This document shows positions 37,596 through 51,118 of a stretch of DNA of 64,000 nucleotides, piece by piece (the stretch's first letter is position 1; each line of letters opens with the position of its first letter). The stretch is from Octopus vulgaris (Eukaryota). The stretch lies in the NCBI GenBank assembly GCA_951406725.2, contig OX597828.1, positions 66,960,001-67,024,000 on the forward strand. Direction: 5' to 3'. The translations under genes were made by a program, and so were the position numbers. The notes under the pieces were generated by a model. That model saw nothing but the letters and a program-made list of their open reading frames with translations. It did not search any database and was not told the origin of the DNA.

Positions 37596-37856
37596 GTTAA
37601 TCCAAACATGAAAGCACAAAAAAGCACAACAACGCGAGTACGTGGAACAAGTATAGTATTATTGGACGCTCAGGAAAGAAGGAGGGCTTAACATTTCGAG
37701 CGGAGCTCTTCGTCGGAAACATAGGAGAAGGAAAGATCCAAGGAAGGGAAGACGGAGGAAAAAAATCGCCAACGGTACACACGCGGTCACATTTTGAATG
37801 TATGTATGTATGTATGTATGTATGTATGTATGTATGTATGTATGTATGTATGTATG

Positions 37857-49585: not shown

Positions 49586-49662
<77 letters not shown>

Positions 49663-49666
<4 letters not shown>

Positions 49667-50240
49667 AAGATAATAGGATTTCAAAGCTGATGTTCTCCGC
49701 TGATCTGTGCACTGGAAAGCATCCTCAGCAGAAACCACAACGAAAGTTGGAAGACTGCTTAAAAGACAGAATGATGCGGGATAATCGACCAGACATAGTC
49801 ATTAAAGACGGAGAAGAAAACACTTGTAGGCTAATAGATGTAAGTGTTCCCACTGATAAAAATGTATCTGTAAAGGTATTTGACAAATTAAGTAAATAGA
49901 AAGACCTGGAAATTGAAATACAAAAAGATGTGGCATCTTAAGGCGAGAACTGTTCCTGTTATTGTAGGTGTCCTAGGTATGATAAGAAAGGGATGTCAGA
50001 AACATCTAGATAATATCCCTGGAGGACCATGTCTCAGAGAAGTCCAAAATATTGTGATGACAAATACTGCTCACATTCTTAGAAAAACCCTATCAATTTA
50101 GACATCTGTGTTGTACTACATGAAGATATTTCGCTACTGCCCCTGCAGTCATACTGTAGCATCTCTTATCCTTCACTCGCTTTAGGATGGTGGGTGTGTC
50201 TCGGCGAGTGATTGTAACAAACATGCCGATTAAAAGTAAA
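49663..50240 (+). mobile_element. RTE-like fragment (about 49663-49770) joined to an R4/Dong-like REL C-terminus and 3' UTR
   Basis: [34 protein letters not shown], then [22 protein letters not shown] and MWHLKARTVPVIVGVLG..TAHILRKTLSI. (AAC)/(AAT) tail. Confidence 0.82.
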
Positions 50241-50265: not shown

Positions 50266-50466
50266 ATTTTCTACACTAGGCACAAGGCCCGAAATTTTTG
50301 GGGAGGTGGGGCAGTCGATTAGATCGACTCCAGTACACAACTGGTAGTTAATTTATGGACCCCAAAAGGATAAAAGGCAAAGTTGAACTCGGCGAAATTT
50401 GAACGTAGCGACAGGCGAAATACTGCTAAACGTTTCGTCCAGCGTGCTAGCGATTCTGCCAGCTCG
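50266..50466 (-). mobile_element. SINE family B
   Basis: Family B core on the minus strand. Confidence 0.85.
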
Positions 50467-50483
50467 ATAGGCCATAGGGCAAC

Positions 50484-50563: not shown

Positions 50564-50665
<102 letters not shown>

Positions 50666-50802
50666 GGGAGAGTTTACGAAAAAAACAAAATAAAAGACGA
50701 AGATAGGTGGTGTACAAAACAAACAGATGTATTAGTATAACGCTCAGGAATAGAAAAAGTCGTTTACGTTTCGAGCCTACGCTCTTCTACGGAAAGGGAC
50801 AC

Positions 50803-50899
<97 letters not shown>

Positions 50900-51036
50900 G
50901 GGAGAGTTTACGAAAAAAACAAAATAAAAGACGAAGATAGGTGGTGTACAAAACAAACAGATGTATTAGTATAACGCTCAGGAATAGAAAAAGTCGTTTA
51001 CGTTTCGAGCCTACGCTCTTCTACGGAAAGGGACAC
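50666..51036 (-). repeat. Two identical 137-bp units (234-bp period) in (ATCT)n, each with a minimal hammerhead-like motif
   Basis: Units 50666-50802 and 50900-51036. Minus strand CTTT-CCGTAGA-A-GAGC(GTAG)GCTC-GAAAC-GTA-AAC at 50759-50796 and 50993-51030. Confidence 0.85.

Positions 51037-51118
<82 letters not shown>

Follow-up and report, generated by a model that had tools for sequence, protein, structure and literature searches.

We analysed a 64,000-nt stretch of the Octopus vulgaris genome (GCA_951406725.2, contig OX597828.1, positions 66,960,001 to 67,024,000, forward strand), hereafter the window, which holds a short tandem embedded in microsatellite DNA. Two 137-bp units, 100% identical to each other, recur at a period of 234 bp between (ATCT)n tracts (Table 1), and the two 234-bp periods differ by at most one letter, within the tract. 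Unit 1 starts 10 nt before C3 of a hammerhead-like motif and ends at CTCTCCC/TA, the fixed 3' end of the repeat family to which it belongs. Sequence comparison upholds the layout given in the first-pass annotation, which had described two identical units at this spacing with (ATCT)n between them, and sequence and pattern searches confirm the hammerhead-like motif that it had placed on the minus strand of each unit.

Two other repeats lie nearby. The 3' end of a non-LTR retrotransposon occupies 49661-50230 on the plus strand (translation RPDIVIK...LIDVSVP...KDLEIEIQK, interrupted by a stop and a frameshift), and its 3' UTR and (AAC/AAT)n come next; we take this element to be of the restriction-like endonuclease, HERO/R4 type. 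A short dispersed repeat at 50266-50470, presumably SINE-like, has 13 further matches in the window and matches in 30 of 218 fetched loci.

Table 1. Features of the tandem and its hammerhead-like motifs (window coordinates).
Feature	Position	Strand	Remarks
Unit 1, 137 bp	50900..51036	-	pLTR stub of a Penelope-like element, 5'-truncated 3' end, CUGUAGA subfamily
Unit 2, 137 bp	50666..50802	-	Letter-identical to unit 1
(ATCT)n tract, 102 bp, one ATTT variant	50564..50665	.	3' flank on minus strand; likely insertion target
(ATCT)n tract, 97 bp	50803..50899	.	Between units; likely a hybrid tract from the duplication (putative origin)
(ATCT)n tract, 82 bp	51037..51118	.	5' flank of element on minus strand
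Motif of unit 1	50995..51030	-	From sequence, pattern and layout against the minimal-hammerhead consensus (PMC4209133 supplement)
Unit 1 motif, helix I 5' strand	51030-51027	-	Helix I mismatch at 50996
Unit 1 motif, core C3-A9	51026-51020	-	C4 at 51025, U6 at 51023
Unit 1 motif, helix II GAGC/GCUC, then GAAA-CGU-A	51018-51007 (helix II)	-	
Unit 1 predicted cut	between 50999 and 50998	-	Putative site
Motif of unit 2	50761..50796	-	Putative cut between 50765 and 50764

Read along the minus strand, both units give CUUU CCGUAGA A GAGC GUAG GCUC GAAA CGU A AACG. Chance would yield 0.02 matches to the helix II/GAAAC part of this pattern in the window, which has two. The minimal-hammerhead consensus comprises a U-rich stretch, CUGANGAH, helix II, GAAAN, a palindrome and NUH (PMC4209133). 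The window motif departs from this layout in three places only: C4, U6 and one mismatched pair of helix I. In place of the minimal type I core CUGANGA, the window has CCGUAGA and its family CUGUNGA; the other features are present, namely GAGC/GCUC with G10.1-C11.1, an A bulge after A9, GAAA-CGU, a palindrome at 15.2-16.2 and H17. The C instead of U at position 4 and the U-C mismatch at the third pair of helix I occur in both units and went unremarked in the first-pass annotation. Its reading of the palindromic ACGU as the geometry of a dimer-dependent minimal hammerhead holds, the motif being a minimal type I hammerhead-like fold. At E<=10 Rfam matched nothing between 50600 and 51100, and over the whole window no hammerhead stood among the matches listed, which contained microsatellite noise. 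Single-strand folds of the unit were no better than those of shuffles (z -0.65, 1.23, 0.08), as is expected of a minimal motif.

A DNA search of the genome with the unit (2.8 Gb, 227 contigs) yielded 2,029 candidates, the best 40 of which were scored; the window units apart, the scored matches (39 places among those listed) are 93-96% identical to the unit. The exact motif pattern with positions 4, 6 and 7 left free has 15,782 matches genome-wide, and its reversed control has 0. The 3' end of the copies is fixed, with 37 of 38 loci ending 127-129 nt after C3, and their 5' ends are ragged, lying 15-348 nt before C3 (38 loci). Either (TA)n or (TAGA)n adjoins the 3' end of family copies; CTCTCCC(TAGA)n is the terminus of 12 genome copies, including both window units.

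Longer copies continue 5' into a frame with RT, the sequence CSRPRCRTC, which is a CX2-5CxxC linker between RT and EN, and a GIY-YIG-type domain. The EN region has 18,640 candidates genome-wide, and all 13 stretches around the longest frames (13/13) show a stop-to-stop frame of 1021-1214 aa with a U6 motif 3' of it. A matching upstream pLTR, 97.2-99.8% identical, lies ~4.5 kb away in 9 of these 13 long elements. Full-length ~4.5-kb copies with intact frames, all of the sister subfamily CUGUUGA, carry the motif in both pLTRs. For the frame of one of them, L101 (1214 aa, stop to stop), Pfam places RVT_1 above its cut-off (E 1.7e-7) and GIY-YIG below it (E 0.0078, 16.9 vs 22.6 bits); both matches came from the whole frame, and the 264-aa EN-side fragment alone gave no Pfam match.

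The window units belong to another subfamily, CUGUAGA, and are 78% identical to both pLTRs of full-length L101. When loci were picked by the upstream DNA of this subfamily, 11 of 30 matched the RT and GIY-YIG frame. At L210 a pLTR 94% identical to the unit continues 5' into an RT-EN frame, which is 85-88% alike in protein to the RT-EN frame described above. The unit is thus a truncated pLTR of an autonomous EN+ Penelope-like element (PLE). The CX2-5CxxC linker together with the microsatellite/(TA)n targets points to a parent element of Neptune type, the linker by itself being common to Neptune and Nematis (PMC8557442). Like the EN+ Neptune and Nematis PLEs of Craig et al. 2021 (PMC8557442), the octopus elements have a single frame of RT, CX2-5CxxC linker and C-terminal GIY-YIG-type domain with CCHH residues, and they share with them pLTRs, partial tandems, inverted 5' copies and microsatellite targets.

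Some arrangements of the family were seen in passing. L113 (G000:C6:117391000-117400999) holds three motifs at a ~4.47-kb period in repeats 99.6% alike, a full-element tandem of more than two units. The element also recurs about 13 kb past the window end, at L115 (G000:C15:67034001-67044000), as a truncated copy that has a 399-aa EN-side frame; a second motif accompanies it. L039 and L056 are inverted stub pairs ~140 bp apart, tail-to-tail and head-to-head.

The first-pass annotation had suspected the change from A to U at position 6 of being damage that inactivates this copy. This suspicion does not hold, as U6 is the state of ~99% of the family: A6 occurs in only 168 of the 15,782 exact matches, U6 is found in 96 of the first 100 listed, and young intact elements have CUGUUGA in both pLTRs. 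The lesions proper to the window copy are U4C and the broken helix I. Across 141 fetched copies, C3, G5, G8 and A9 are constant, positions that the search itself partly demanded; all four letters occur at position 7, and H17 is A or U in 139. U6 (CUGUNGA with GUAG as loop II) is kept across subfamilies at least 20% different, with positions 7 and 17 drifting.

In a sister lineage the helix II stem is unchanged, the loop has 3 nt and position 6 is A; this lineage makes up the bulk of the 17,289 matches to a second pattern. Its ~17,000 copies have the ACGU palindrome and three helix I pairs in common with the U6 lineage. Smaller families with other helices account for 563 matches (control 19), and 26 of the 30 that were fetched have A6. 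Helix I is CUUU/AAAG in 84 of 100 copies of the U6 lineage and GUUU/AAAC in 14 of 30 of the A6 sister lineage, a difference that reads as a compensatory change between the two. Over all distinct flank pairs, 29 of 68 give at least 4 bp vs 14.6 ± 2.9 when shuffled, a count uncorrected for kinship among pairs. A tree of 69 pLTR pieces with positions 6-7 masked, built on a short alignment and with weak inner support, sets the GUAG-loop copies apart from the A6/UCC lineage (0.96, 0.94). Within it, 6 of 9 A6 copies that have the GUAG loop are nested in U6 subfamilies, and 3 are basal with weak support.

Because U6 stands in both pLTRs of young intact elements and most of the rare A6 copies fall where they do in the tree, U6 has persisted over repeated cycles of transposition. 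As a variant of the minimal hammerhead, a core with U6 throughout the family is a modest one. We found no A6U or CUGUNGA hammerhead family in the literature searched, which did not extend to Lunse et al. 2017, where position-6 variants may be described, or to one file of the PMC4209133 supplement.

The A6 lineage also showed several features of its own. A sister copy lies in the window at ~37690-37728 on the minus strand, CCGACGA A GAGC UCC GCUC GAAA UGU, with the palindrome mutated. In the A6/3-nt-loop lineage (L160-L189), C at position 4 is present in 17 of 30 fetched copies, so that U4C is a family state there. Two identical A6 motifs lie 452 bp apart at G000:C3:114537953 and 114538405, and three motifs follow a 16.3-kb period at G000:C18:76866133, 76882492 and 76898761.

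Each of the window's private changes is found singly among its closest relatives, C at position 4 in 3 of the 31 nearest copies and the helix I change (C) in 3 of 31. The variant that combines U4C with the helix I mismatch has 2 matches in 2.8 Gb, which are the window units themselves. Because these changes co-occur nowhere else, the pair is best explained by a single local duplication through the microsatellite, and the tracts on both sides of the stub supply homology for misalignment. We therefore regard it as quite probable that a Penelope-like stub in (ATCT)n was duplicated in place by misalignment of its flanking tracts. A TA step in the microsatellite would have served as the priming site, and reverse transcription would have stopped short, as in most copies, here after 137 nt. 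U4C and the helix I mismatch would then have accumulated in the stub, after which the ~100-bp and ~80-bp tracts would have undergone unequal crossover or slippage, copying unit and tract to give the 234-bp period and presumably leaving the pair as inert debris. The locus is ordinary transposon debris.

Short tandems are rare in the family. A second same-strand motif within 600 bp was present at 3 of 129 motif-bearing loci (134 loci fetched), in a non-random sample made up of the best matches and the first places on contig C1. None of the first 100 listed exact matches has a same-strand neighbour at 600 bp or less, the nearest being 815 bp away. Of 10 other (TAGA)n-flanked copies, one has a near neighbour, which comes from another subfamily. 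The three tandems differ in make-up: at L120 two different subfamilies sit 334 bp apart inside one (TAGA)n tract; at L201 two diverged copies lie 166 bp apart with (TA)n between; and L005 (G000:C14:17865110-17865854) has three stubs, recurring every 255-256 bp, whose helix I is undamaged and whose spacer is unique. The 108-bp spacer of L005 has three array matches at L005 and elsewhere 5 single matches of 72-76%. We considered the L005 trimer as a true retrozyme and rejected it, the spacer being arrayed at L005 alone and two fetched outside matches having no motif; L005 is a local triplication of stub and flank. It is a better candidate than the window pair for assays of dimer cleavage. None of the three is a spreading monomer. 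The survey agrees with the outcome that the first-pass annotation had itself named as speaking against its reading, a one-off unequal crossover with other copies monomeric.

Four other accounts of the pair were weighed against duplication in place. If the animal carried a single stub that the assembly wrote twice owing to the flanking (ATCT)n, the complete identity of the units and the single letter, at most, between the periods would follow. Contigs from four public sequencing runs (two organisms), in which the unit is a very high-depth repeat, include no piece that spans the tandem. Such an artefact is nevertheless improbable: reads well in excess of 555 bp probably underlie an assembly that places 2.8 Gb in 227 contigs, the three tracts differ in length, and short tandems elsewhere in the family whose units have diverged indicate that such events are real.

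We also assign little probability to both units having arisen in one retrotransposition event, either by a jump back of the reverse transcriptase via (AGAU)n/TA homology or by two rounds on a small RNA circle. Partial tandem insertion is common in Penelope-like elements (PMC8557442), L113 repeats its motif three times, and the two units are truncated at an identical 5' point. This route, however, requires a source RNA with both private changes, for which the assembly offers no other locus, and the spacer is host microsatellite and not element sequence.

The proposal of the first-pass annotation was a functional retrozyme-like dimer, whose minus-strand transcript would self-cleave twice and free a 234-nt circle with (AGAU)n. 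The tandem motifs with palindromic ACGU are those of such a dimer, 234 nt falls inside the 170-400 nt range of animal retrozymes (PMC7229834), and a PLE pLTR ancestry has been proposed for retrozymes (Li et al. 2026, bioRxiv 10.64898/2026.07.22.740005). As a retrozyme-like mobile unit the pair nonetheless fails, with the exact variant at the window locus only and the unit a Penelope-like stub. The motif is minimal and not canonical, with two core departures and a mismatched helix I, and the predicted folds, which are secondary-structure energies only, are unfavourable for both the double hammerhead and the circle (below). We consider this account very improbable. Two independent insertions of the family into one microsatellite have precedents in L120 and L201 but merit hardly any credence, as a shared 5' end and two changes co-occurring nowhere else are not expected from them.

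Pairing of the two ACGU stretches gives the double-hammerhead geometry, with 234 nt from cut to cut. A fold that contains this geometry is at best 24.7 kcal/mol less stable than the MFE fold, vs 13.4 for the undamaged L005 pair, a comparison of secondary-structure energies that weighs little. Helix I of the window motif lacks one of its four pairs, and the predicted 234-nt circle (-39.9 kcal/mol) is 56% paired. Intact minimal motifs are also poor cleavers as dimers (PMC4209133), and changes at positions 4 and 6 each reduce activity (Perreault et al. 2011, PMC3088659). Among natural variants in the latter source, A6C has a kobs below 0.1 per min, and U4C is low in vitro and viable in a viroid; A6U does not appear in the PMC3088659 text searched (0 matches). 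A pairwise screen found the CUGA turn tolerant of a 3-8 swap only (PMC9901934). Given the fold penalty, the broken helix I, the core departures and these low published activities, the window pair is likely inert.

For the family as a whole, we see roughly even chances that the motif, with U6, cuts tandem 4.5-kb transcripts slowly as a dimer, by analogy with the proposal made for other Penelope-like elements. Two observations disfavour it: position-6 changes lower published activity (PMC3088659; PMC9901934), and the predicted cut is the 5' end of long copies in 0 of 36 mapped rows (from 40 loci given, 4 of which had no row, and with at least 2 of the 36 rows duplicates), 23 of which extend past the cut into the upstream pLTR. 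The absence of 5' ends at the cut fits a ligated circle template and an uncut tandem transcript equally well.

The octopus motifs resemble the minimal type I pLTR hammerheads of metazoan PLEs described by Cervera and de la Pena 2014 (PMC4209133) in their U-rich 5' flank and 4-bp helix I, in the extra nucleotide between A9 and helix II, and in G10.1-C11.1, GAAA, the palindromic CGU and H17. The resemblance extends to genomic distribution, truncated elements having left thousands of copies, most of them solitary, and full elements bearing motifs in both pLTRs. Unlike the consensus core CUGANGA of that source, the octopus family has CUGUNGA in almost all copies, and the fixed core of the PMC4209133 descriptor would have missed the U6 family. 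The family works like the minimal pLTR hammerheads of PLEs, yet its U6 core keeps it from being one of them in the strict sense. It also differs from the core variants in PMC3088659, which are single sequences, in that U6 marks a whole amplifying family. PMC6765202, PMC11014351 and PMC6155905 were also consulted.

Animal non-LTR retrozymes, for which the criteria were taken from Cervera and de la Pena 2020 (PMC7229834) and Li et al. 2026 (bioRxiv 10.64898/2026.07.22.740005), resemble the window pair in PLE ancestry and in having units of 170-400 bp arranged head to tail, each with a type I hammerhead-like motif. Unlike them, the window pair is one locus with a host-microsatellite spacer and a minimal, damaged motif. 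Since the monomer is unrepeated at other loci and the motif is not canonical, the window pair is not an animal retrozyme. Given a matching core, stubs of this kind could be scored as retrozymes by the pipeline of Li et al., which looks for a tandem repeat with two complete motifs.

The locus illustrates how microsatellite targeting and local duplication yield retrozyme look-alikes, and it calls for caution with pipelines that take any two tandem motifs for a retrozyme. The family-wide U6 is weightier than the locus itself, for it sets two sister lineages of similar size, A6 and U6, side by side in one genome, both at tens of thousands of copies. If U6 motifs cleave, the core tolerates U6, and CUGANGA descriptors overlook whole families; if they do not, these elements spread without a working ribozyme. 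We offer as a tentative and rather doubtful possibility that the U6 lineage, large and recently active, uses a hammerhead with the U-turn U in place of the invariant A6, which either cleaves or is cut in trans by the sister A6 hammerheads, and that local duplications give rise to retrozymes. Were this true, local duplications would be raw material for retrozymes, and either the known hammerhead core would widen or the A6 lineage would cut in trans.
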